From Enterobacteria phage Ac3: DNA of 64,000 bases. Below, one piece after another: positions 31,961 through 62,308 of the stretch (the stretch's first letter is position 1; each line of letters begins with the position of its first letter). Location: sequence record OK040907, one strand, 5' to 3'. The notes below the pieces were generated by a model. It was not told the origin of the DNA and made no database searches. It saw only the letters and a program-made list of their open reading frames with translations. A program made the position numbers and the translations under genes.

Positions 31961-32674
31961 ATGAACTATAAACTGATCTACGAAAAACTGATCAGCAACG
32001 CCAAATCCCGTAAACTGGACTGTTACACCGAGTCTCATCACATTATCCCGCGCTGCCTGAATGGCTCCGATGACGCGAGCAACCTGGTAGACCTGACCCC
32101 TGAGGAACATTACGTTGCACACCAGCTCCTGGTTAAAATTTATCCGTCCGAGCCAAAACTGATTTACGCTGCCAACATGATGACTGTATCCACTAAATAT
32201 GCTAAACGCAATAACAAAACGTTCGGTTGGATCCGTCGCAAACTGTGGGAAATCGAAAAAAACAAAGAATTCTCTCAGGAAACCCGTAAGAAAATGTCCG
32301 ATGCGGTTGCCAACAAGGCGCGCCTGACCTGCCCGCACTGTGGTAAATCTGGCCTGTCTGGTAACATGAATCGTTGGCACTTCGATAATTGCCCGAACCA
32401 CCCGAATCCGAAAGTGCGTCCTCCGATGTCTAAAGAACACCGTAATAACATCAGCAACGGTCTGAAAGCAATTATCCTGGAGGAAACCTCTTGCGAATTC
32501 TGCGGTATGATCGGCAAGAAATGCGTGATTGCAGCTCACCGTAACTTCTGTAAGAAAAACCCGAACGGCCGTAAGAAAACCGAGAAAACCGGTACTTGCG
32601 TGCACTGCGGTAAAGTTACGACCTTTGGCAACCTGAGCCGTTGGCACAACGACAACTGCAAGCACAAACACTAA
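31961..32674 (+). CDS. HNH homing-endonuclease-like protein with C-terminal Cys-rich zinc-finger repeats; codon-optimised-looking
   Basis: 237-aa plus-strand ORF with ESHHIIPRCLNGSDDASNLVDLTPEEHYVAH motif; ctg/ccg/cgt codons; stop overlaps gene 46 stop (convergent). Confidence 0.65.
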   Translation: MNYKLIYEKLISNAKSRKLDCYTESHHIIPRCLNGSDDASNLVDLTPEEHYVAHQLLVKIYPSEPKLIYAANMMTVSTKYAKRNNKTFGWIRRKLWEIEKNKEFSQETRKKMSDAVANKARLTCPHCGKSGLSGNMNRWHFDNCPNHPNPKVRPPMSKEHRNNISNGLKAIILEETSCEFCGMIGKKCVIAAHRNFCKKNPNGRKKTEKTGTCVHCGKVTTFGNLSRWHNDNCKHKH

Positions 32675-34359
32675 TTGATCGTAGCAACGGAGAAACGACC
32701 CACTTTCTCCATTTTGATGTGCTGACCGTAGTCCTGTGGGTCGTGGTCTTTGTGGCTGATAATGAAAAAGTTAGTATCTTTCAGGCCATCGAGAATTTTA
32801 GCGACGTTTTTGATACCTTCGGCGTCGAACGCGCCATCGTACACTTCATCCAGGAACAGGCAAGAGATTTTTACACCAGAGACTTTTTCGGCGATGTCAC
32901 GCCAGGTGAACAGGAGGGCGATATCGATACGTGCCTTTTCGCCTTGGGAGAAGGATGCATAAGAGAAATCTTCGCGGCCGCGGGATTTGATAGTTTCGTT
33001 GAATTCCTCGTCCAGGGTGAAAACATAGTCCGCCTCCATAATTTTCAGATAATGGTTGATCTGTTTGTTGAACAGCGGGATGTATTTCTTAATGATCGCG
33101 CCCTTGATGCCGCTGTCTTTCAGCATGTCGGTCAGGATGCCACGGTGGTATTTTTCCATCACCAGGTTGGTTTTAGTCTTCACGATCTTATCCAGCTCTT
33201 CCTGCAGGAGGGCAATTTCGTCCGCGTGGTCAATGAATTCAGAGGAAGCTTTTTCAATGGCAGCTTTAACTTTCTTAGCTTTGTCAACCGTGGTAATCAG
33301 GGACTGTTTCTTGTTACGAATATCGTTCGCCAGAGACTGTTGGGTCTTAATGTTATCACGATATTCGTCCACCAGGACTTTCAGGTTATCGCGGTGGGTG
33401 GACAGTTGTTCAAAAGAGTGGGTGCATTCGCTCACCTTATCTTTAATTTTGCTCACAACTTTATCACCGCTGGACAGTTGAGACAGGCAGGTCGGACACA
33501 GACCGCCCTCGTGGTACATGTTGATAACTTTGTTGTAGCTATCGATTTTGGATTTAATCAGCACGGCCTCCTGGCCAATTTTGTTAAAAGCATCAGTAGG
33601 GTCTTCGTCCAGCACGATGTTGACCAGACGTTCATTCGCTTCCTCGATTTCGCTTTTCAGGGTACGAGCTTCTTTAGCCAGATCGTCGTACATGTTCTGC
33701 AGGCGCGTCAGGTTGTCACCGGTCAGTTTCTTCTGACGTTCTACGTTGTCGTTGTAGATCTTGATCTGTTGGATAATAGAGTCTTTCTTCACATCCAGTA
33801 CCTGGTTCTGAGAGTTCAGTTCACGGATCAGTGCTTTGTTCAGTTTGTCCATCTCCGCCAGGGTGCCAACCTCCAGGAGGTCTTCGACCAGCTTACGGCG
33901 TGCTGGAGTGCTCAGGCCCATGAACGGAGTGTAACCCGCAGTGCCGAGCACAACAATCTGCTTGAAGCTAGCGTAAGACATACCGATCAGCTGTTCGAAC
34001 TCGGCCTGAAAATCTTTGGAAGAGGCAGATTCGTTCAGACGGGTGCCGTTCACAGTGATTTCAAAGACGTTTGGTTTTTGACCGCGTTTGATGTAATATT
34101 TCTTTTCGTCATATTCCATCCACAGTTCTACCAGGAGTTCTTTCTTATTGGTGCTGTTGATCAGCTGGCCTTTCTTAACGTCGCGGAACGGTTTACCGAA
34201 GAGGCCGAAGGTAATAGCCTCCAGCATGGTAGATTTACCGCCACCGTTACGACCAGTGATCAGGGTTTTCTGAACTTTGTCCAGCTGGATATCAACGCCG
34301 TTCTGGCCTACGCTCATAATGTTCTTGTATTTAACACGGTTCAGTTTAAAGGATTTCAT
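32671..34359 (-). CDS. 46: recombination endonuclease subunit (SbcC/Rad50-like ATPase)
   Basis: 562-aa ORF, Walker A GRNGGGKST, coiled coil; protein is gp46-like but DNA is E. coli-optimised-looking. Confidence 0.85.
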   Translation of the reverse strand: MKSFKLNRVKYKNIMSVGQNGVDIQLDKVQKTLITGRNGGGKSTMLEAITFGLFGKPFRDVKKGQLINSTNKKELLVELWMEYDEKKYYIKRGQKPNVFEITVNGTRLNESASSKDFQAEFEQLIGMSYASFKQIVVLGTAGYTPFMGLSTPARRKLVEDLLEVGTLAEMDKLNKALIRELNSQNQVLDVKKDSIIQQIKIYNDNVERQKKLTGDNLTRLQNMYDDLAKEARTLKSEIEEANERLVNIVLDEDPTDAFNKIGQEAVLIKSKIDSYNKVINMYHEGGLCPTCLSQLSSGDKVVSKIKDKVSECTHSFEQLSTHRDNLKVLVDEYRDNIKTQQSLANDIRNKKQSLITTVDKAKKVKAAIEKASSEFIDHADEIALLQEELDKIVKTKTNLVMEKYHRGILTDMLKDSGIKGAIIKKYIPLFNKQINHYLKIMEADYVFTLDEEFNETIKSRGREDFSYASFSQGEKARIDIALLFTWRDIAEKVSGVKISCLFLDEVYDGAFDAEGIKNVAKILDGLKDTNFFIISHKDHDPQDYGQHIKMEKVGRFSVATIN

Positions 34360-47043: not shown

Positions 47044-47433
47044 TTAATCCAAAATATTATTAGGCATTGGTTGAACACTCACAAGTTCTTTAAAGAACTC
47101 AGTAGAGTCAGGCAATTTAACCATTTCCGGAGCATGCTTACTGAATTTATGTTTACATTGACGGCATTTATATTCAAGCTCTGGTTTACGCCAGTTAATC
47201 AATTGAACTTGTTCAGTACCGCATTCAGGGCAATTAGGAACGTTTTTAGAAGCTCTTTCACGTCGTTCAACCATAGCCATAATAGCATCCCATGCTGGAG
47301 GTTTAAAATCTAAATCGTCGCAGCCGTGAATCTTTCCACGCATTTCCAAATCGTCTTCTTCACCAGCCATAATAATTTTAATTAGACTAGAATTACTTGA
47401 AGCTGCAATGTCTTCTAATAAACGCTTTTTCAT
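47044..47433 (-). CDS. zinc-finger protein
   Basis: 129-aa ORF with CPECG...CRQCKH. Confidence 0.5.
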
Positions 47434-48356
47434 TTCAATACCTCAATAGCATTACGTAAACCATTTGCTTTGGCGGTTAAAGCCTTAAGAACTTTAGTAT
47501 GCTCTTCAATCTGTTTTTCAACTTCAATCAAACGGGCACTGAGATATTCGCGTTCTTCTTTCATAGTATCATTTCCATGATTGGATTTTGGTGTAGGTTT
47601 AAATTCACTAGGGTCCTTTAATTTAATAACAAATTTAGTTTCAAACAGTGAAAGACCATAATTCGTATTATCATCAAAGGATTTGACTACATCCATATCA
47701 GATAATAACACGCGCAAATTATAAGCCAAAGAACTAATAGTTTCATTGTGTTTATTAGCTTCGCGTGGTTTCATATACGGAAGATTTTTATATATCTCAT
47801 GCGGAGCGCAAACGATAATTGACAATTCAAATTGTCCATTCTGGGACGATGGAGTGAATTTAGCCGTAACCCAGTCTTTTACATTCACATTAATAGTACG
47901 GTTATCACCATGACAAAACAGTCTACGAGAATGCTTAAAAAGCATATTCACGTTATTATTGAATTCGTGTGAAAATTCACTAGCAAATTTTTCTTTACTA
48001 TCTTTAGAAAACCATTCTTCTAAATAAGTTCTTTTCACGTCGTTAATAATATTAAATGTAACAACACTAGCATTTGATACATTAGTCTCAATGTAGCTTG
48101 GATACATAAATTTTTTAATATTATTAACAGCTATCACAGAAGATAGTAATCGGGAACGTTTGAACCACTCGAGCAAAGAACCAAGAGAATGTGAATACGC
48201 ATTTTGTGTATCTTTACAAATATGGTTTTCCCATCCAATATAGTCTAAAAAATCACGAAGAATATTATTGATTACTTCTCTATGTCCTTTCTGATAATCA
48301 CGATGTTTAGTAATAAGACTGTCAAAATAATCAATATAATGTTTACGAGTTTTCAT
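47430..48356 (-). CDS. hypothetical protein with C-terminal coiled coil (array member 1)
   Basis: 308 aa; one of four adjacent 300-340-aa ORFs each ending in a coiled-coil tail. Confidence 0.55.
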   Translation of the reverse strand: MKTRKHYIDYFDSLITKHRDYQKGHREVINNILRDFLDYIGWENHICKDTQNAYSHSLGSLLEWFKRSRLLSSVIAVNNIKKFMYPSYIETNVSNASVVTFNIINDVKRTYLEEWFSKDSKEKFASEFSHEFNNNVNMLFKHSRRLFCHGDNRTINVNVKDWVTAKFTPSSQNGQFELSIIVCAPHEIYKNLPYMKPREANKHNETISSLAYNLRVLLSDMDVVKSFDDNTNYGLSLFETKFVIKLKDPSEFKPTPKSNHGNDTMKEEREYLSARLIEVEKQIEEHTKVLKALTAKANGLRNAIEVLK

Positions 48357-48389
48357 GTTCTTCTCACTTGGTTAATGATTTATACTCCG

Positions 48390-48403
48390 AGCCATCCTTG
48401 GCT
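48390..48403 (-). terminator. hairpin
   Basis: plus agcca-tcct-tggct. Confidence 0.35.
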
Positions 48404-48410
48404 TTAAATT

Positions 48411-49412
48411 TTACTTAATTAACTGTAAAGCTTGTTCCAGACGATCAAGACGATTAACAGATTCTTCCCAAATCCTTTTAGCCTGCTCATATTCTTTCTG
48501 TGCTTTATTAGAAATTTCTAGAACTTCTTTATAAGCTTTTTCTAGTGCAATAACTTCTGGACGAATTTCTATCGGTTCAGGTGAATCATCAAGATTATCC
48601 ATTAGTTCCTCAAGGGTAGTTTCTTCTTTAGGAGTATTCACAATTTCATCACATTTTTGTTGATAAATTTCTTTATCAGTAGGTGAGTACGCGCACTTTA
48701 CTTCACGAAGACTAATTACAATTTTATATCCTTCCCAACCACCCATATTTTTGAAAGGATATGTATGAATACTTTTTACAGTTTCCATACAATCCAAAGC
48801 CGTCTCTAATTGATGAGTTATAGTGCTAGCAATTGAGAAAAATTTATTAATATTCTTTTGGTTAGCTTCTGGTGTAAAAAATTCGTAATTCACAAAAATA
48901 GCTACTTTATTTTTATCAAGCTCATATTCTTTTACGATAATCATATCAGAAGCCAAAGGATGAATTTGACGATAATCGCCATAACATAATTTAGAAGCTG
49001 ATTTTAGAATTTGTCCTTTAAAAAGTCTGAAATTGCTAATCCAACGACGAGTAAAAATATTCTTAGGGTCTTCTTTGATATTAAGATGATAAGAATTAAC
49101 ATCACCGAACCAATTGTATCCTATTACACCTTTAGTTCGTTTAATTTCTTTCCCAAAATTACCAAGAATATCCCGATTAACCAAATATGAAAGAAGACGA
49201 GACCCTTTAAAGATTATCTTAATATCATCTTTATCTACACGGCTAGAAATTTCACGAACTTCATGAATAAATTTACTGGAAGAAACAATACTTGCATCAA
49301 TACTGCTGAGCCATTGATTGATAATAGAAAGAACAGCGTTCTGACTAGACATGGGTTTAACTTTATCATCAATAACACTATTGAATGATTTGATATATTC
49401 GTTACGAGTCAT
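48411..49412 (-). CDS. hypothetical protein with C-terminal coiled coil (array member 2)
   Basis: 333 aa from Met MTRNEYIKSF with GAGGAG RBS; the longer ORF start lies inside promoter 49441-49470. Confidence 0.55.
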   Translation of the reverse strand: MTRNEYIKSFNSVIDDKVKPMSSQNAVLSIINQWLSSIDASIVSSSKFIHEVREISSRVDKDDIKIIFKGSRLLSYLVNRDILGNFGKEIKRTKGVIGYNWFGDVNSYHLNIKEDPKNIFTRRWISNFRLFKGQILKSASKLCYGDYRQIHPLASDMIIVKEYELDKNKVAIFVNYEFFTPEANQKNINKFFSIASTITHQLETALDCMETVKSIHTYPFKNMGGWEGYKIVISLREVKCAYSPTDKEIYQQKCDEIVNTPKEETTLEELMDNLDDSPEPIEIRPEVIALEKAYKEVLEISNKAQKEYEQAKRIWEESVNRLDRLEQALQLIK

Positions 49413-49440
49413 AATAATCTCCTCAGTAGAAAGTAAGAAC

Positions 49441-49470
49441 ATTATACCACATCCTTGTGGTAAAGTAAAC
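49441..49470 (-). promoter_or_regulatory. early promoter (GTTTAC - 18 nt - TATAAT), 32-nt identical copy of the one at 2418-2449
   Basis: plus attataccacatccttgtggtaaagtaaac. Confidence 0.6.
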
Positions 49471-50495
49471 TAGTTCAGTGCATTTAATGCATTGTTCAGT
49501 TTAGAACGTTGCTTCGTGAGATTTTTGACTTTTTCTTGTGCTTTTTCTAGCATCTTTTCAGCTTCTAACACTTCATTGGTCGCTTTAACGAGTTCATCAT
49601 CTACTGCCTTGATAGACTTCTCAATCGCATCCGCGTGCCATTTTTCAACAGGTTTAAGACTCGGATTTTCAATAGGAAGAAAATTCACTTTATTGAATTT
49701 CCATGCATCCTTATTACCTGAACTATACATCCAAAATTTAGGATCGTTTGATGAGTAATTGGATAAATTTAAATTTAAGTTATCTTGCACTTCCTGCTTC
49801 TTCTCTTGCGTGACTTCGTCCTTTCTCAAAAAATCATATTTAAATGAAACAATCATATCAAGTTCATATGTTGTTGTGTCTAATTTAAATCGTTCGAAAT
49901 GCTGTGAAATCTTAGACCGAACAGCGGCAACAACATCCATATACTTAAATGCTTCTGTCAACTGTGATTTAAGGCATTCACAAATTGAAAGAGAATTTTT
50001 TGTATTAGGTTTAAAGCTAATTCGTGCAGTTCTATTATTTTCTTTTAATGGTCTTACTTCCATCTGAAGAGTATAACCATCAAATTTCAAGTTCTTTAAG
50101 TTAATATCAGAACCTTTTAATCGACTAGCAGTTGATAAAATTTGCTTTAATTGTCTACGGAACAGAGCAATAAATCTCCATTCAATACGATAATGATTTG
50201 GATTGAAAAATCCAGATGATAAATCGACCTTACTCTGACCAACACCTTGAACAAATAGAGGATTTTTATAATCAATAGTTTTACAGAAATCGGTGAGCTG
50301 CTCACGAGCAGTCATTTGTGTAATATATCCCGCTTTACTAAAATGACGTAACCATTCACTGCTATTCATATACTTAAAGTGAATGGAACTATTAACTCTA
50401 TCAGGGTCTAAATTATTTTGGCACAAAAATGTCATAACATCACGAGTATAGCTGGCATTACGAACCATATCTTCAATTTGAGAACGAGTTTTCAT
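49470..50495 (-). CDS. hypothetical protein with C-terminal coiled coil (array member 3)
   Basis: 341-aa ORF. Confidence 0.55.
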   Translation of the reverse strand: MKTRSQIEDMVRNASYTRDVMTFLCQNNLDPDRVNSSIHFKYMNSSEWLRHFSKAGYITQMTAREQLTDFCKTIDYKNPLFVQGVGQSKVDLSSGFFNPNHYRIEWRFIALFRRQLKQILSTASRLKGSDINLKNLKFDGYTLQMEVRPLKENNRTARISFKPNTKNSLSICECLKSQLTEAFKYMDVVAAVRSKISQHFERFKLDTTTYELDMIVSFKYDFLRKDEVTQEKKQEVQDNLNLNLSNYSSNDPKFWMYSSGNKDAWKFNKVNFLPIENPSLKPVEKWHADAIEKSIKAVDDELVKATNEVLEAEKMLEKAQEKVKNLTKQRSKLNNALNALN

Positions 50496-50503
50496 AGTGT
50501 TCC

Positions 50504-51409
50504 TTAAGATTTAAGTAAATCAACAATTTTAATTAATTTTTCACGCTCAGATTTAGCTTTATTACTCAATCCAGATAGTCTGAAAATTTCATCGTCATAC
50601 TGTTGAATAGAAATATTCAGCTCTTCAATTTGCTTATTAAAATAATCAATTTGCTCAGAATGTTTTTCGTTACTACGAACTGGTACAGGGTTTGTAGGCA
50701 ATTTAGTTAAACTGGATTCATCCGGGCGATAAATTAAAATGCAATTTGAACCAATCGGGCATTTAGCACCAGATGAATATTCTAACGTTCCAGCTTCTTT
50801 TAAAACTTCAAAAGCTAAACAGAGATGATGCCCCATATTAACATAATCTGTAGAGTGAGCTCTGACGTAATAATCATCTCCACGAGTACTAAATTTAAAG
50901 CATTTAAGGTCTTCTGTATTATTAGTTTTAAAAATCATTTGTTTATCTAGACCTTTAGCCAATCGAGCACCTAATGCTAATAATCGTCGTTGATTTTCCC
51001 ACAAATCCGCAATCATTTGATCGAATGACAATTTCGGCATTAGTCGACCATAAAGGTCATATCCTTTATTATAATTGCGAAGAATTTCACTCGCGTTAAT
51101 GCGAGACAATGCTCCAATTTTATTAAGGGCTTTCATGATGCGATTAGATAAACTCATTCCAGACCCATTTGTTCGCTGTAAATGTTTTTCTAATCCAAAC
51201 CCAATATCAACTTTAAATTTATCTAAAATTTCAGCATGAACATCTCTGTCAATAACATTCAAATCCAAAGTTGGGTTAAATCTATGAAAAAATTTATCTG
51301 GCTCTCCACGACGAAATACAGTCCATTCATTCATCATTTTTTTATTAACTAAAGATTTAATTACTGCATTGACATTATTAATTACTACTGACATATTTTT
51401 CTCACTCAA
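50504..51409 (-). CDS. hypothetical protein with C-terminal coiled coil (array member 4)
   Basis: 301-aa ORF. Confidence 0.55.
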   Translation of the reverse strand: MSEKNMSVVINNVNAVIKSLVNKKMMNEWTVFRRGEPDKFFHRFNPTLDLNVIDRDVHAEILDKFKVDIGFGLEKHLQRTNGSGMSLSNRIMKALNKIGALSRINASEILRNYNKGYDLYGRLMPKLSFDQMIADLWENQRRLLALGARLAKGLDKQMIFKTNNTEDLKCFKFSTRGDDYYVRAHSTDYVNMGHHLCLAFEVLKEAGTLEYSSGAKCPIGSNCILIYRPDESSLTKLPTNPVPVRSNEKHSEQIDYFNKQIEELNISIQQYDDEIFRLSGLSNKAKSEREKLIKIVDLLKS

Positions 51410-51865: not shown

Positions 51866-52393
51866 TTATGCGAGTACCGTCTTTAACCGTTCTTCAAACT
51901 TCCGAAGAGTATTCTGGCGTTCAGCTCTTTGCTTTTTGTAAGTTTCAATACGCTCTGAAATGAGATTGTATCGTTCATTTACTGTTTCTTTCATAAAATC
52001 AGGAATTTCACGAGAAGCTTTAATCTCGTCAAATTTATCAATAACAGCTTGCTCTTCAGCAATTAAGTTATCATACATCAAAATATCTTTCTTGATGAAC
52101 TCAATATCTTCTTGAGTTACACGAGATAACTTAGATGCTTTATCCTTTTTGTACTGTTCGTTAGTATCACGAGACCAGTGTAATGTACGATTTTTATTCG
52201 TATTCTTGTAAATTTCTACAATACCAATCTCATCGATAATAACGATCCAATTCCAACGGGATTTGTAAATTTGTCCTCCATCAACAGTGATTTCACCACC
52301 GATTGAGACATCATTAAAGAACTTGCTTTGAGCTTCAGATTTAAATTTACCATCATTGTAGTTTACCAAGTTGAAAATATCTTTAGCATTCAT
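51866..52393 (-). CDS. hypothetical protein
   Basis: 175-aa ORF with GGAGG RBS and conserved leader. Confidence 0.5.
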   Translation of the reverse strand: MNAKDIFNLVNYNDGKFKSEAQSKFFNDVSIGGEITVDGGQIYKSRWNWIVIIDEIGIVEIYKNTNKNRTLHWSRDTNEQYKKDKASKLSRVTQEDIEFIKKDILMYDNLIAEEQAVIDKFDEIKASREIPDFMKETVNERYNLISERIETYKKQRAERQNTLRKFEERLKTVLA

Positions 52394-52838: not shown

Positions 52839-53558
52839 TTAGGATTCTTCTAAATGTCTTTTCTGAAAAGTTGATACCATACTACGATACGGTTCATTTG
52901 GATATCCGTGTTTTATAGCTTCCTTTGTAAATTTTCTCCATCCATATTTAGTTTCTTTCCAAAGCTCGAATAATTCATCTTCATATTGCCATATAGTTAA
53001 ATGAGAACGCTTTGCAGCTTTAATTCCATTAATATGCTTTTCTTTTACTACAGGATTGCTTAGTTTCTTTTTAATAATATTACTAACTTTTCTAACAAAA
53101 ACTGGGTCCTTATATCGTTGCGAAGTTTTTATTGAAGTGTTTAATTTAGCTTCCGGCGTGGATGTGACCTCTTTCATCTTTTTCTTCATATGCTGTATAT
53201 GATTAGGATTTTTCCATAAATTTATAGAATGCTTTTTGCATTTTATCCTAGTTTCATCTGCAACCTTTCCTCCTTCACCCCCGTATGACAGGTTAACACA
53301 GTTTTTTCCATATTTCAATTTACCTGCCATGATATATAATATTTCAGCTTGTACCATTTTATCATAATTATCAAAAACTTCTAAAACCGTTTTTGATAAT
53401 ATGTGGTCATTTGACACTTTTACACGTTCTATATAATTTCCACTACCAACATACGAATCATTGATGTTATTAGTTATATGTCGACCATAATAGTATTTCT
53501 TAATACCTGTCTTTAAATTTAATATTTCAGTTTTATAGATAGTAAAATATTTTTTCAT
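52839..53558 (-). CDS. putative GIY-YIG (Seg-like) homing endonuclease
   Basis: 239-aa ORF with N-terminal YYYGRH...SYVGSG motif and basic C-terminal half. Confidence 0.5.
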   Translation of the reverse strand: MKKYFTIYKTEILNLKTGIKKYYYGRHITNNINDSYVGSGNYIERVKVSNDHILSKTVLEVFDNYDKMVQAEILYIMAGKLKYGKNCVNLSYGGEGGKVADETRIKCKKHSINLWKNPNHIQHMKKKMKEVTSTPEAKLNTSIKTSQRYKDPVFVRKVSNIIKKKLSNPVVKEKHINGIKAAKRSHLTIWQYEDELFELWKETKYGWRKFTKEAIKHGYPNEPYRSMVSTFQKRHLEES

Positions 53559-54523
53559 TTTAATAATACCGTTTCAGCGATTTCTTCCCAACCGTTTTTG
53601 TCGGTCATAATAAAGTCAGCAAGATAAAGTGCAGTACGCAGTGAAACATTACGTAAACGATTAACATTGACTTTCATCCATGATAATGCTTTATAAGTTT
53701 CTTCATCAGAAAGACCGCGCTTTTGCATCATGTCGGTTGAAAGAATAACATCTTCAACCCTGACCATAATTTCTTCATTAGTGTGAACACCCAAATCCAA
53801 ATAAACTGAGCGGGACACTAATGCTTGTAAATGTGGAGCAAGTTTAGTACCACGGTCTAATTCGCGGTCAATGTCAACGTTTGTGATAAAAACAATCGTT
53901 CCTTTAAATTCAAACTCACGCTCAATGCCTTTTTCTTCTAAGTAAGAAGATGCGGTGCTCCAGCAGACTTTACGGGTCTCTCCAGTGTCCAGAGCAGCTT
54001 TCAGAAGATTAAGAATGTCCATATCAGAGAAAACATCCACATCATCAATCAAAAGGACAGAATTCTCTTCACGATTATTCCAAAGCTGTTCATAAAGACC
54101 AATACCAGAGATTTTACCATTAATGCTTTTATACTCAATGTATCCAATATCATTTGCTTTATTTAAAGCTTTATCTAAAGAATACGTTTTACCAATACCT
54201 GCTGCTCCCGAGATAATTAATGAACGAATGTTTCCGTTAATAATACCATTCGTCATCATTCCCATAACATTAAATCTTTTATTAATGCGGGTTTTCATAT
54301 CTTCATACGATTCTTTAACTTCTTCAACTTTTACACCATCATATGAAATGTCTGATTTGTAAACCCAAACACCGCGACGCTTACCGTCAATTTCAACAAA
54401 AACTTTACCATCTCCTTGTGCATCTACCGGAGCATTATCTGGGAACCATTCGCCTAAGAGCTCAAAAGTTCCAGAGATTTCTTTACCGAAGTAGATACCC
54501 TTATTGATAGTTACAGTTTTCAT
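53555..54523 (-). CDS. P-loop NTPase
   Basis: 322 aa from Met MKTVTINKG; Walker A GAAGIGKT and Walker B LLIDDVD. Confidence 0.55.
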   Translation of the reverse strand: MKTVTINKGIYFGKEISGTFELLGEWFPDNAPVDAQGDGKVFVEIDGKRRGVWVYKSDISYDGVKVEEVKESYEDMKTRINKRFNVMGMMTNGIINGNIRSLIISGAAGIGKTYSLDKALNKANDIGYIEYKSINGKISGIGLYEQLWNNREENSVLLIDDVDVFSDMDILNLLKAALDTGETRKVCWSTASSYLEEKGIEREFEFKGTIVFITNVDIDRELDRGTKLAPHLQALVSRSVYLDLGVHTNEEIMVRVEDVILSTDMMQKRGLSDEETYKALSWMKVNVNRLRNVSLRTALYLADFIMTDKNGWEEIAETVLLK

Positions 54524-54557
54524 TTTATTCTCCAAATCTGTATCAGTTGATAGTTGT

Positions 54558-54587
54558 ATAGTACCATAAAGCTTTATGCTTGTAAAC
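54558..54587 (-). promoter_or_regulatory. early promoter (GTTTAC - 18 nt - TACTAT) with conserved leader
   Basis: plus atagta 54558-54563, gtaaac 54582-54587. Confidence 0.55.
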
Positions 54588-54616
54588 AACTTTGTGAAAA
54601 ATTTTTGAAATAAAAA

Positions 54617-54636
54617 AGGGAGCCCGAAGGCTCCCT
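54617..54636 (-). terminator. hairpin with UUCG tetraloop 3' of the nucleotidyltransferase gene
   Basis: plus agggagcc-cgaa-ggctccct. Confidence 0.5.
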
Positions 54637-54637
54637 A

Positions 54638-55648
54638 TTACTTATAGTAGGAGCGGTGGTTCTCCAGGTAAACTTTTTCCAGAAAGTCATCCCAGAAACC
54701 CATGTCAACCTTTTGCTGCATGCCATTCTTGGATGCTTCCGTGCTCGCAGCCTCCACCTGATCAACTACGTCCTCGAGGAATTCCTGCACGGTTTTGAAC
54801 GGGTGCTTGCCCAGTTTGACATCCAGGATAAACGGCGCATCCTGCAGTGGGTAGATCAGGTCGCCGGTTTTGTAAATTTCCAGGAGCTGCAGGCCACCGC
54901 GGCATGCATGGGACAGAGCTTTCCAGTCGATGCCTTCGTTTGCCTCTGCTTTGCGGGCGCGTTCGCCGTATTCAGCATCCAGTTTATTCAGGGATTGTTT
55001 CAGTTCGATCAGGCTCAGGGTAGTCTGATATTTACGACCCAGCACCGTATAGAAAGTTTGCGGGCCGGTTTTTTCGTGGTTGTGAAACACCCATTCACAG
55101 AATTCGTTTTCCGGCAGGCGGTGTTTGATATCTTCGATTTTGGTACGGCGTTGACCCTGAGTGCCGTCTTCGCGATAAACGTTGCGCTGGTCCGGGATCT
55201 GATTCACGACTTTCAGGACGTCGCGCAGAGCGGCCAGACGGGAGCCCTTAACACCATATTTAGAGGCTTGTTTGCGTACATAGCCCAGGTAAGATTTCAT
55301 ATTGGTAGTGTAGAAGCGGCTGCGGTTGTCCTGAATGAATTTCCAAACGTCAGGCAGATCGCTCTTAACCACCAGTTCTGGCGGCGTATGCAGCATGTCG
55401 AGTGCCACGGTCTCACCGTCCGCAGCCAGTTTGAAAAAATACTTGAGGCTATACAGTTCGTGGTCGATGTCATCTTTGGTATTCTTGCTAGAGGTATTGT
55501 TGGTGTTTTTAGACATGTGTTCTTTCACGTTGCCGATCAGAATGTCACGTGCCGGTGGCACGAAGATCTCTTTGAAGTCGACATCGCTTTCCGGGGTGGA
55601 AGTGCCGTACAGGTGGCTGCCAAAGTAGGATTTCATCACAGTCTTCAT
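54638..55648 (-). CDS. Pol-beta-superfamily nucleotidyltransferase-like protein; codon-optimised-looking
   Basis: 336-aa ORF with N-terminal GS-x11-DVD motif (YFGSHLYGTSTPESDVDF) and candidate third acidic residue in ALDMLH; ctg/ccg/cgt-rich DNA. Confidence 0.55.
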   Translation of the reverse strand: MKTVMKSYFGSHLYGTSTPESDVDFKEIFVPPARDILIGNVKEHMSKNTNNTSSKNTKDDIDHELYSLKYFFKLAADGETVALDMLHTPPELVVKSDLPDVWKFIQDNRSRFYTTNMKSYLGYVRKQASKYGVKGSRLAALRDVLKVVNQIPDQRNVYREDGTQGQRRTKIEDIKHRLPENEFCEWVFHNHEKTGPQTFYTVLGRKYQTTLSLIELKQSLNKLDAEYGERARKAEANEGIDWKALSHACRGGLQLLEIYKTGDLIYPLQDAPFILDVKLGKHPFKTVQEFLEDVVDQVEAASTEASKNGMQQKVDMGFWDDFLEKVYLENHRSYYK

Positions 55649-56109
55649 TATTCAGCTTTGTATTCGATCACCGGACACACTTTCGCTTTGCGCGCTTTCA
55701 GGAACTCAACAATGATAGATTTCTTCGGTTGGATTGGCGGCAGGCCTTTGTAAGCGCGATCGATGTTTTCAACGTGCAGCGCGTAATCTTTCTTCCATTT
55801 GTAGTCTTTGTATTTCTCACGCAGGTGCGCCGGAATCACGAAGGAGCCGATAATCAGGAGAACCACCAGGAGTGCCAGAATGAACGCGGATGGCAGGAGG
55901 GTCCACAGGCTACCGAAGATCAGCCAGCGCTGCAGGGATTCAGCACAGATAATAGTCAGACCAACCAGGATGGCACAACCGAAGATGGAAACGAAAAACG
56001 TCGGGATGGCGATAGACCAGAAGTACGCGCACAGGGTTTTAGGGCGCTGCCACTCGTCGTTAAACAGTTTGAACAGCTTATAGTGCCAAGAGTTTTCATT
56101 AATGATCAT
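55648..56109 (-). CDS. two-transmembrane-helix membrane protein; codon-optimised-looking
   Basis: 153-aa ORF with two long hydrophobic segments; TAATG overlap with the nucleotidyltransferase gene; native RBS upstream. Confidence 0.55.
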   Translation of the reverse strand: MIINENSWHYKLFKLFNDEWQRPKTLCAYFWSIAIPTFFVSIFGCAILVGLTIICAESLQRWLIFGSLWTLLPSAFILALLVVLLIIGSFVIPAHLREKYKDYKWKKDYALHVENIDRAYKGLPPIQPKKSIIVEFLKARKAKVCPVIEYKAE

Positions 56110-59917: not shown

Positions 59918-60080
59918 ATATTAATTTCCAGGAGTTTTAAAATAATTCGCTTTTGCTTAAATATTTCCATAGTTAAATGACTAGTATCTTTTTGACCGAT
60001 TCCAATGGCAAAACCTTTATTAACAGCGAGTTCAATTAAATTATCAAGCTCACGTAACACTTCGTATTGTAACTCAAAAC
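59914..60080 (-). pseudogene. 5'-truncated remnant of a native gene
   Basis: native-composition ORF tail of about 55 codons with no start codon; its upstream boundary is the edge of the recoded island 60084-60963. Confidence 0.35.
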
Positions 60081-60083
60081 TAT

Positions 60084-60514
60084 TTATTTCGGTTTACCTT
60101 CCTTCACGAAGTCTGGGTACGGATAAAAGCCAGAGTAGAAACCTTCGCCTTTGTGGTTGATACAACCTTTGTTGGAACAATAGCACCAGTAATCGAAATC
60201 GCAAGCCATTTCGTCGTTGCACAGGGCGAAAACGACCGGCCATTTACATTTTTCACAGTGCGCGTTTTTCAGGATGGAAGTCTGGGATACCGCCAGGTGA
60301 CTTTCAGGCAGTATTCCTCCACATGCTGTTTGCGACCTTTCTTGTCGATGAAGGTGTATTCAACGAAGGTACCGATGTAATCTTTATCCACGTCGTGCGG
60401 AGAGTTGATCGGGCACTTAGTACGGCAGATGCGTTCCCACTGACGAATGATTACAGCCTTGTTTTTCGGGTCGAACGGGTGTGGATAATGTACTTTTACA
60501 GCAGCGGCTCCCAA
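60084..60514 (-). pseudogene. Cys-rich protein gene split across two reading frames; codon-optimised-looking
   Basis: frame A (TTG start in track) has protein-like sequence to about 60300; frame B continues with HCEKCKWPVVFALCNDEMACDFDYWCYCSNKGCINHKGEG... to a TAA at 60084-60086; no ATG. Confidence 0.4.
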
Positions 60515-60963
60515 TCAACGATTACGATTTCCAGTTTGGAAGAATAGGTGTCCAGGATACCTTCAATGATGTCCCAGTTGCCTTTACCGATGCCGGCGCC
60601 GATGCGCGGCATGTAGATGGTTGGTTTGATCAGTTTGTTTTCACCGAATTCGTTCAGCTCCAGCATACAATTCATCAGCGCAGAATATTCAAAGTTTGGG
60701 CCCGGCTGGAACTGAGTGTACAGGTTAAAACAGTACGCTTTGTGGGTGCGAAAGTACTTTTCATACACGGAGTAGCTACCCAGTTTAGTCACGTCGCCCC
60801 ATTCGGTCTGCAGCTTGTCAGCTTCCAGGATTTTCGGAAACGCTTTGGTCAGCTGACCGGCTACACCCGCTTTCATGGTATGGAAGCAGTTACAGCCGTG
60901 AGCGATGTTTTTACCTTCGGCAAACAGCGCTACGATATCGCCTTTGATGTATTTGACAATCAT
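60496..60963 (-). CDS. macro-domain protein (Poa1p-like ADP-ribose-1''-phosphate phosphatase family); codon-optimised-looking
   Basis: 155-aa ORF with IAHGCNCFHTMKAGVAGQL and YMPRIGAGIGKGNWD motifs resembling Poa1p; ATGA overlap with upstream native gene. Confidence 0.55.
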   Translation of the reverse strand: MIVKYIKGDIVALFAEGKNIAHGCNCFHTMKAGVAGQLTKAFPKILEADKLQTEWGDVTKLGSYSVYEKYFRTHKAYCFNLYTQFQPGPNFEYSALMNCMLELNEFGENKLIKPTIYMPRIGAGIGKGNWDIIEGILDTYSSKLEIVIVDWEPLL

Positions 60964-61301
60964 CTAGTACTCAATCCTCGATTATAAGAATCTACCAAAC
61001 GGTCAACCATTGAATGACAAGCGGCTTTATCTTTCTCCTCCGCAACTGAACATTCTAAAGTATTCCACTTTTTAGCATATCGTTTTAATAATGTATCGTT
61101 TTTGTATCTGCTTGATTTATCTCTTTCTCCGTCTTTGTATGCATATATTAATTTCTGTGCAAATTCAGCTTGGCATGCTTTATTTTTCCCACAATAATCT
61201 GCCGCAGTGCGGTTTACATACTCTCTAATTTCAGTATATGATGTATCTGCTAACGCAGAAAATGAAATTAATCCTATACATAAAACCAAAATTTTAGTCA
61301 T
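60960..61301 (-). CDS. secreted hypothetical protein
   Basis: 113-aa ORF with signal peptide MTKILVLCIGLISFSALA and four Cys. Confidence 0.5.
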   Translation of the reverse strand: MTKILVLCIGLISFSALADTSYTEIREYVNRTAADYCGKNKACQAEFAQKLIYAYKDGERDKSSRYKNDTLLKRYAKKWNTLECSVAEEKDKAACHSMVDRLVDSYNRGLSTR

Positions 61302-61839
61302 TTACTATTTCCAAAAGTTTATTATTTTTAAGGTAATTAGCCTTTTCTAGGACTTCAGAAGCATATTTAGAACCTGCTTTAACATTCCATCCCGAATTAT
61401 AAGAGGATATTGCTTTTCTTATATCGCCCTTATGTATATTTAACCAATAAGAAAGTTCAATGTACGCCCAGGAAGCTGAATTGGACCGTTTATTCAACAT
61501 TCTTTTTATTTCAGCATCGGTCATATTATAACCAAGTTCCTTAACTCTTGCTCGCATAGTAGGCAAATAATTTTGGAACATTCCATAAGCGTGATGCTTT
61601 GGTTTAGATTTTAAATTAACTCCGCCAGAGCTTTCTTGCCATAAAATAGCAGCCATTATATGACCTAATCCACTCTTGTGGATGTTTTTGTGTGTTTTAT
61701 ATTTTCCATCCTTAGAAAATTGTTCCCCGAATTGATACGCGTAACGCATGTTATCGAGTTGGACATTACTGAAAGTATGCTCGGAGCTATGTGCCATCAT
61801 TGAAATGGCCAATAGACCAGCGAGTAGTGCTTTTCTCAT
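61294..61839 (-). CDS. lytic transglycosylase-like protein (SLT domain)
   Basis: 181-aa ORF with signal peptide and WQESSGG...AYGMFQ motif. Confidence 0.6.
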   Translation of the reverse strand: MRKALLAGLLAISMMAHSSEHTFSNVQLDNMRYAYQFGEQFSKDGKYKTHKNIHKSGLGHIMAAILWQESSGGVNLKSKPKHHAYGMFQNYLPTMRARVKELGYNMTDAEIKRMLNKRSNSASWAYIELSYWLNIHKGDIRKAISSYNSGWNVKAGSKYASEVLEKANYLKNNKLLEIVND

Positions 61840-61846
61840 GCTTACC

Positions 61847-62308
61847 TCATTGAGTTTTAATTACTGCTTTAGAAGCCTTTCCTGGTAAACGACGACTGTT
61901 AATAATTGCCATCCTACATTGGAGTGACGGGTCTTTGAACTTCTCATTAGGTTTACAAACCGTAAATCCAAGCCAAAGATTTCCATCTGTGATTTCTAAA
62001 CGTCCAGGACGATATTCAACCCCATCAATAAAATCCTCGTCAATGTCAGGACGCGGAGGCATACTCAGAAATTCATTAACTTCTAAAACATGGTCTTTTA
62101 TTTTATGGAATAATTCAAAAACGTATGTCTCATCAATCTCCCGTTGAATTGCGCGATCAAGAAGATGCTGAGAATATTTTAGATGAAACGATGAGACCCC
62201 TGCTGCTTTTGATGCCTCACGAATCTCATTGTTAATTTGACGAAACTCCGACTCAAAGTGACGACGAAGCTTATTTCGACGGATAAAAACTTCTGTATTG
62301 ATAGTCAT
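61847..62308 (-). CDS. regB: sequence-specific endoribonuclease RegB
   Basis: 153-aa ORF MTINTEVFIRRNKLRRHFESEFRQ...; promoter 62335-62364 upstream. Confidence 0.85.
   Translation of the reverse strand: MTINTEVFIRRNKLRRHFESEFRQINNEIREASKAAGVSSFHLKYSQHLLDRAIQREIDETYVFELFHKIKDHVLEVNEFLSMPPRPDIDEDFIDGVEYRPGRLEITDGNLWLGFTVCKPNEKFKDPSLQCRMAIINSRRLPGKASKAVIKTQ

Follow-up and report, generated by a model that had tools for sequence, protein, structure and literature searches.

Phage T4 is the best-studied phage, and roughly half of its genes are without a function. One gene with a published role is nrdC.5: a T4 deletion mutant is unable to infect cells that carry the Dsr1 protein of ECOR17, and expression of nrdC.5 alone restores infection (PMC9391042; Srikant, Guegler & Laub, eLife 2022). 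Dsr1, which T4 nrdC.5 counteracts, is a SIR2-type NADase, and a 2026 preprint describes it as sensing the major capsid protein via a TPR-type sensor (PMC12803255). Genes in the neighborhood also counter defense, as gp49.2 inhibits OLD (PMC13096335) and nrdC.1 inhibits Septu (bioRxiv 2025.11.20.689424). A functional parallel comes from an SPbeta-like phage, whose DSAD1 is described in two reports as binding the sensor region of the SIR2 NADase DSR2 and blocking its activation, which is the mode of action proposed here (PMC10973363, PMC11087589). We analyzed the array of four consecutive genes, nrdC.3 to nrdC.6, that contains the nrdC.5 gene in a 64,000-nucleotide stretch of Enterobacteria phage Ac3 (sequence record OK040907), called the window hereafter and used for all coordinates. 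The explanation that we hold for the whole, with somewhat more confidence than doubt, is that these genes are tandem paralogs restricted to T4-like phages and that their products are early, non-enzymatic anti-defense binders that oligomerize through their tails.

The initial annotation had placed four adjacent genes at 47430-51409, and they are indeed there, as consecutive minus-strand open reading frames (ORFs) that correspond to the hypothetical genes nrdC.3, nrdC.4, nrdC.5 and nrdC.6. On the map they follow the glutaredoxin gene nrdC (downstream), but in transcription they precede it (upstream). The 3,980-bp array region is 100% identical to that of the T4-like Tequatroviruses RB51 and RB68, in which the coordinates are likewise equal, and 90–98% identical to T-even genomes in >500 phage records. 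As its sequence is identical to that of RB51, the proteins are called RB51 nrdC.3–nrdC.6 below. The nrdC.3 gene (47430-48356) codes for 308 residues and nrdC.5 (49470-50495) for 341, and the latter is the orthologue of T4 nrdC.5, with 92.5% identity and a shared position. The starts of the other two genes had to be corrected. Translation of nrdC.4 very probably begins with the ATG at 49412 (48411-49412, 333 residues), because a GAGGA Shine-Dalgarno sequence is found upstream of it and the ATG at 49442, to which the mechanical ORF extends, falls within a promoter's -10 box. For nrdC.6, whose mechanical ORF begins with a TTG at 51409, the start is most likely the ATG at 51394 (50504-51394, 296 residues). 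Both corrected lengths agree with those of homologues and with the T4 annotation.

Pairwise identity among the four RB51 heads is 10–22%, so that the N-terminal regions do differ in raw alignments, as had been noted at first. The heads are nevertheless homologous according to profile comparison, bridging sequences and predicted fold. With the tails removed, hhalign matched the heads of nrdC.3 and nrdC.4 at E = 2e-9 (z = 22 relative to column-shuffled controls) and those of nrdC.4 and nrdC.5 at E = 1e-3 (z = 5.5, exceeding 60 of 60 shuffles). In pairwise phmmer comparisons, the intermediates P0236, P0240, P0244, P0246, P0243 and P0247 join all four families. With whole proteins, nrdC.6 is linked to P0240 at 2.8e-8 and P0240 to P0236 at 1e-11, and P0236 reaches nrdC.5, nrdC.3 and nrdC.4 with values between 6e-4 and 2e-3. 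The chain persists after removal of the tails, at 9e-4 between nrdC.6 and P0240, 5e-6 between P0240 and P0236, and 1.6e-3 between P0236 and nrdC.4, and phmmer gave no link between family members and >60 decoy ORFs. Motifs common to the heads are a helix pair, [ST]xxxAxxxLxxFG, a helix ending in ...[RK]Lxx(x)G.x[RK], and a helix LxxALxxMxxV that is followed by the Pro-rich linker.

Models were built with AlphaFold2 for nrdC.5 and nrdC.6, the latter from an alignment of its own family alone, and their folds were compared by secondary-structure order and shared matches in BFVD. The two models have an equal order of secondary-structure elements, with a three-state agreement (Q3) of 0.65 versus 0.37±0.09 in shifted controls, and both match the BFVD proteins A0A1V0DXL6 and A0A0K1LMI4, uncharacterized proteins of T4-like phages. 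We concluded that nrdC.3–nrdC.6 are whole-length paralogs with collinear, diverged heads and that the link of nrdC.6 is the weakest. The early idea that the four proteins form one family is thus supported by profile comparison and bridging sequences. The accompanying idea of different head domains on a shared tail was not supported, as the heads are collinear with a common secondary-structure order.

The predicted architecture starts with an alpha/beta head of ~225–250 residues, in which a helical bundle would be followed by a beta-hairpin / helix / beta-hairpin unit, continues with a variable, disordered, Pro-containing linker, and ends in an amphipathic heptad helix of ~53 residues with a fixed C-terminus. 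In nrdC.3 the head would comprise residues 1-248 (47613-48356), the linker residues 249-263 (47568-47612) and the heptad tail residues 264-308 (47433-47567). The corresponding parts of nrdC.4, in the numbering of the 343-residue mechanical ORF, are residues 11-262 (48657-49412), 263-294 (48561-48656) and 295-343 (48414-48560). In nrdC.5 an alpha/beta head (residues 1-225; 49821-50495) precedes a disordered linker (226-284; 49644-49820) and a single long tail helix (285-341; 49473-49643). Those of nrdC.6, in the numbering of the 301-residue ORF, are residues 6-232 (50714-51394), 233-247 (50669-50713) and 248-301 (50507-50668). All of these segments are on the minus strand.

Heptad-like C-terminal tails had been described in the initial annotation, and both register analysis and modeled helices bear this out, with an unbroken heptad helix of 45–56 residues predicted at the end of each protein. 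In the best register, 80–94% of the a/d sites are hydrophobic over 42–56 residues, compared with 16–28% of the other sites, and the periodicity is significant against shuffled sequences in 4 of the 4 proteins (p ≤0.01). In the AlphaFold2 models, the tail is a single helix in nrdC.5 (residues 285–340) and a pair of helices in nrdC.6 (248–277 and 282–300). Throughout the family, ~53 residues separate a conserved Pro-x-Pro from the C-terminus, and the sole change of tail length, a 7-residue insertion in Tequatrovirus nrdC.5, amounts to exactly one heptad. All tails carry the motif [QE]R.[KR]L..[AI][LI]..L[KN], at the C-terminus or one residue short of it. They combine hydrophobic a/d periodicity over at least four heptads with a predicted helix, the pattern expected of coiled-coil proteins. 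Since the tails appear as long, heptad-periodic helices, oligomerization through them is plausible. A heptad-periodic C-terminal helix (...FEERLKTVLA; 0.75–0.80 of the a/d sites hydrophobic, p ~0.005) was also observed in nrdC.8 (51866-52393, 175 residues). Despite its similar tail, nrdC.8 was rejected as a member of the family, as the family hidden Markov model (HMM) does not match it; nor did this HMM find a fifth paralog within the 64-kb window.

We then compared evolutionary rates among eight Tequatroviruses. The ratio of non-synonymous to synonymous substitution rates (dN/dS) is 0.19 for nrdC.3, 0.23 for nrdC.4, 0.22 for nrdC.5 and 0.09 for nrdC.6, whereas gp49, nrdC, nrdC.1 and nrdC.8–nrdC.11 have values of 0.01–0.07, and the non-synonymous rate of the four genes is 2–10 times that of most flanking genes. 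Within orthologue groups, constraint is strongest on the tail (dN/dS 0.03–0.14) and the head evolves faster (0.10–0.23); between distant orthologues, identity is 60–66% in the tails and 42–47% in the heads. No region has a dN/dS >1, and the value of ~1.0 for the short nrdC.4 linker comes from very few substitutions. A variable head on a constant tail, as first suggested, is therefore an adequate description within orthologue groups but not between paralogs, whose tails are 18–29% identical.

The nrdC.3 gene exists in two allele classes, A in RB51, T4, T2, T6 and ZN18, and B in RB14, LH2 and Lv5cm. Between the classes, the first 70 residues and the tails are 82–87% identical and the middle 33–57%; the loci compared with 47430-48356 of the window were L016 (8132-9061), L013 (7066-7992) and L015 (7087-8013). 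The synonymous divergence (dS) between A and B is 0.6–1.2 over the whole gene, which argues for ancient alleles or exchange and not for recent selection. Rare composite proteins were also observed: P0056 (299 residues) fuses the middle of nrdC.5 to an nrdC.3 C-terminus and looks like a deletion product, P0231 (129 residues) has the C-terminal part of nrdC.6 behind a short foreign N-terminus, and P0235 (173 residues; locus L020) has an nrdC.5 tail after an unmatched 120-residue head. We set P0235 aside as unreliable proof of tail modularity, because it is known only from one metagenome contig of 803 bp and a search of 50,697 phage records gave no match to its head.

These data bear on a different history, in which a constant oligomerization tail was joined to unrelated, interchangeable heads. 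Such shuffling could account for the heptad helices with a common C-terminal L..A[LI]..L[KN] in all four tails, for the greater conservation of tails than heads within orthologue groups, for nrdC.3 alleles that share their ends and differ in the middle, and for the chimeras P0056 (nrdC.5/nrdC.3) and P0235. We nonetheless consider it very unlikely, given that the heads are collinear homologues, that the tails of the paralogs are hardly more identical than the heads, and that the chimeras reduce to a probable deletion product and a protein known from the single short contig. Collinear, homologous heads and non-constant tails show that the origin of the array lies in tandem duplication of whole genes, which then diverged, rather than in a shuffling of heads onto a common tail.

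The family is narrowly distributed. A profile search of 1.84 billion representative proteins returned just 29 at E ≤ 1e-3, and its range seems limited to T4-like phages: all identifiable sequence matches and all significant BFVD matches belong to phages of Escherichia, Shigella, Yersinia, Klebsiella, Enterobacter, Edwardsiella, Pectobacterium, Erwinia, Serratia, Citrobacter, Acinetobacter and Aeromonas. One copy is present in Klebsiella phage Marfa and Enterobacter phage IME523, three copies in Dhakavirus, Gaprivervirus and related phages, and four in most Tequatroviruses, with LH2, Lv5cm and LYE-01 lacking nrdC.4. The family is always found upstream of nrdC.2 and nrdC. In the window, the stop of nrdC.3 and the start of nrdC.2 overlap by 4 nt (47430-47433), and the same 4-nt overlap of nrdC.2 with the family member nearest nrdC is found in RB51, JS98, SP18, YenM_P8, Marfa, IME523, LH2 and Lv5cm. 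Its constancy points to translational coupling that has been conserved, and the two genes may form a functional pair. The nrdC.2 product (47044-47433) is a small zinc-ribbon protein with a CxxC...CxxC pattern. In the simplest reading, the ancestral state would be one copy directly upstream of nrdC.2 with the 4-nt overlap, and whole-gene duplications in coliphage lineages would have given three copies and later four.

Some of the copies could instead be decaying duplicates with no function of their own. In SP18 the nrdC.5-like middle gene (locus L002, 5956-6860) is split into two ORFs and is probably a pseudogene, and this, together with the loss of nrdC.4 from the three phages named above and dN/dS values above those of the neighbors, is what decay would look like. 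Against this, all four genes are intact in hundreds of genomes, their dN/dS is 0.09–0.23, and the tails are strongly constrained, which makes decay extremely improbable as a general explanation. The >500 records and the dN/dS values indicate that nrdC.3–nrdC.6 are real genes.

As for expression, the initial annotation had the array spanning a promoter and a hairpin. Both are present in the gap between nrdC.5 and nrdC.4 (49441-49469, minus strand; GTTTACTTTACCACAAGGATGTGGTATAAT), where a promoter of the T4 early type, GTTTACT...TGgTATAAT, has a 7-bp inverted repeat (49462-49445) in its spacer; the hairpin, however, is not unusually stable relative to shuffled sequence (z = -1.3). Early promoters of T4 carry GTTTAC at -35 and an extended -10 element, and the promoter of nrdC.4 has GTTTAC at -35 and the extended -10 TGgTATAAT. 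A 32-nt sequence of this promoter (GTTTACTTTACCACAAGGATGTGGTATAAT...) occurs twice in identical form, 47 kb apart, at 2418-2449 upstream of rIIA.1 and at 49441-49472 upstream of nrdC.4, and these repeats could be substrates for deletion or amplification. In the spacer between nrdC.4 and nrdC.3 (48366-48410, minus strand), TTTAAA-18-TATAAA weakly resembles a promoter and is accompanied by a hairpin of 5 bp, CCAAGGATGG. The spacer could be read as a degenerate version of the promoter and hairpin before nrdC.4, and this would be consistent with a gene duplicated together with its own promoter. None of the intergenic hairpins exceeds shuffled sequence in stability, and a search of the array region against Rfam gave no family.

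Database families divide what these comparisons unite. DUF7235 (PF23882; gathering score 30 bits) matches nrdC.5 over its full length with 403.9 bits (E = 6e-121), compared with 11.8 bits in the tail only for nrdC.3 and no match for nrdC.4 and nrdC.6, so that membership is limited to nrdC.5. PHROG places nrdC.3 (E = 6e-100) and nrdC.4 (E = 9e-166) together in phrog_1435, over their full length, nrdC.5 in phrog_2351 (E = 2e-170) and nrdC.6 in phrog_2257 (E = 1.6e-151), and labels all three families "unknown function." In precomputed annotations, PF26897 is assigned to all nrdC.4 homologues, including those with as little as 39% identity, and to the C-terminal half of P0056, which is of the nrdC.3 type, and PF26899 to all nrdC.6 homologues; both are assigned here through close homology, and a direct scan with the Pfam copy used returned neither model. 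Sequence searches of Pfam, NCBIfam, PADLOC and the PDB gave nothing informative past DUF7235. The lone match in PADLOC, a collection of defense-system HMMs, was a weak one of nrdC.4 to BrxC, in the tail only (E = 0.004), consistent with a coiled-coil artifact. Many GenBank records call the nrdC.1–nrdC.11 neighbors, these four genes included, "thioredoxin," and in T6 they are called tail or baseplate proteins. As no thioredoxin domain was found in nrdC.3–nrdC.6 with Pfam or NCBIfam, these labels were judged to be errors, and "thioredoxin" appears to have spread by annotation transfer from the neighboring nrdC. The conserved columns of the family are hydrophobic, with two basic positions, and because of this and of the lack of matches in the four databases the family is probably non-enzymatic.

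What the proteins do must be judged from nrdC.5, the neighborhood and genetics. Transposon insertions are tolerated in T4 nrdC.3–nrdC.6 (HIDEN-SEQ), which are thus non-essential in laboratory hosts, and a deletion of nrdC.1–6 is viable (PMC9825161). We read nrdC.3–nrdC.6 as genes that are transcribed early and serve host range or anti-defense. An early, stoichiometric inhibitor role is suggested by the action of nrdC.5 against Dsr1, by the anti-defense neighbors, by dispensability, by faster non-synonymous change than in most flanking genes, and by copies that have been gained, lost or split or that persist as deep alleles. In the mechanism that we propose, the tail would form a paralog-specific, homo-oligomeric coiled coil; the oligomer would present several heads and bind an oligomeric host immune protein stoichiometrically and without catalysis, with tail oligomerization giving avidity for such targets. 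The nrdC.3, nrdC.4 and nrdC.6 proteins would act likewise on other defense proteins. They are good candidates for further immune-evasion proteins because their paralog nrdC.5 already counters Dsr1.

The constrained tail might, alternatively, itself act as the ligand instead of as an oligomerization coiled coil: as an amphipathic helix, it would dock in a helical-repeat (TPR/HEAT-like) sensor, for example that of Dsr1, and compete with the phage trigger, and the head would provide stability or a second contact. The sensor of Dsr1 is a TPR solenoid reported to recognize the major capsid protein (PMC12803255), and a tail that is both the most constrained part within orthologue groups and paralog-specific, with a C-terminus fixed across the whole family, would suit such docking. 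But unbroken a/d periodicity over ~7.5 heptads and a heptad-sized indel are a signature of coiled-coil packing, and the head is likewise conserved and four times larger. We therefore rate this reading as unlikely.

A role in host takeover or housekeeping apart from immunity, for instance in modulating host transcription, with an indirect effect of nrdC.5 on Dsr1, seems about as unlikely. It would fit early expression, and the HIDEN-SEQ tables contain no defense-related phenotype for nrdC.3, nrdC.4 and nrdC.6. However, the genes are fully dispensable and deletable, vary in copy number and sit among three proven anti-defense genes, and expression of nrdC.5 by itself rescues infection on Dsr1+ cells.

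Several points count against oligomerizing anti-defense paralogs, the reading that we prefer. Anti-defense function has been shown for T4 nrdC.5 alone and would extend to the RB51 proteins and the other paralogs by inference, while direct binding of nrdC.5 to Dsr1 is a proposal. Under the conditions of the HIDEN-SEQ supplement, nrdC.3–nrdC.6 had no significant effect. Values of dN/dS are below 1 everywhere, so that positive selection is not demonstrated. A single-chain model cannot separate a coiled coil from a target-binding helix. As to kinship, direct profile comparison of the nrdC.6 head with the other heads was not significant (z ~1.5), and leave-one-family-out HMM searches did not recover nrdC.6, nor nrdC.5, above decoys, so that membership of nrdC.6 rests on the bridging sequences, on secondary-structure order and on shared Foldseek matches. 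The two models are of moderate confidence (pLDDT, the predicted local distance difference test, 72 and 77), and the nrdC.5 model came from a merged alignment of the four families (A2) that included nrdC.6-family sequences, which makes the fold comparison not fully independent.

Compared with T4 NrdC.5, the other three proteins share its architecture as remote paralogs, but they belong to separate families (PF26897, PF26899; phrog_1435, phrog_2257), and with 10–22% head identity they are too diverged for a common target to be assumed. The likeness to DSAD1 is functional: DSAD1 comes from another phage group, and its target is DSR2, not Dsr1. We know of no coiled-coil tail in DSAD1. No kinship was seen, the significant BFVD matches being uncharacterized T4-like phage proteins or nrdC.6 orthologues, in searches that included no comparison aimed at DSAD1. 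With the T-even anti-defense islands (tifA/dmd/adfA; gp49.2 against OLD; nrdC.1 against Septu), the array has in common its neighborhood, early expression, dispensability and patchy distribution. The inhibitors of these islands are, however, small, unrelated and single-copy, whereas nrdC.3-6 form one family of 300–340 residues in 3–4 tandem copies. Homology to the N-terminal domain of RNA polymerase alpha or to the alpha-beta sandwich of phage tail terminators was considered and rejected on account of low scores and 5–15% identity; the resemblance is one of generic fold, with no counterpart to the helical N-subdomain, the linker or the tail.

Other features of the window were noted. A 239-residue ORF (52839-53558) for a seg/GIY-YIG-like homing endonuclease lies between nrdC.9 and nrdC.10; it is found in RB51, RB14, ZN18, Lv5cm and T6 and not in T4, T2 and LH2. 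Against a background G+C of ~0.35, the 2-kb bins 32001-34000, 54001-56000 and 60001-62000 reach 0.48, 0.45 and 0.41, respectively, and nrdC.10/nrdC.11, for an AAA-type ATPase and a nucleotidyltransferase, fall in the 54–56 kb bin.

The genes themselves and the published function of nrdC.5 are already known. What our comparisons and models add is the proposed merger of three families whose function is unknown into a single, tiny superfamily, apparently exclusive to T4-like phages and with a head–linker–coiled-coil plan, a probable tandem expansion from 1 to 3 to 4 copies with heads evolving faster than tails, and the prediction that nrdC.3, nrdC.4 and nrdC.6 may be further counter-defense proteins. 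More tentatively, and with considerable doubt, the locus might be an expandable anti-defense scaffold, in which a paralog-specific stalk multimerizes a fast-evolving head and each paralog and deep allele (e.g., nrdC.3 A/B) blocks a different immune sensor, such as those of helical-repeat-sensor effectors related to Dsr1 and Avs7. If so, host range would be predictable from allele content and from the number of copies (1, 3 or 4). Three orphan early genes for proteins of ~300 residues are thereby tied to a proven anti-Dsr1 gene, which gives a concrete, testable hypothesis, and the map of head, linker and tail shows where to swap or truncate in studies of Dsr1 inhibition. Copy number and alleles at this locus may also play a part in which hosts therapeutic T4-like phages can infect.

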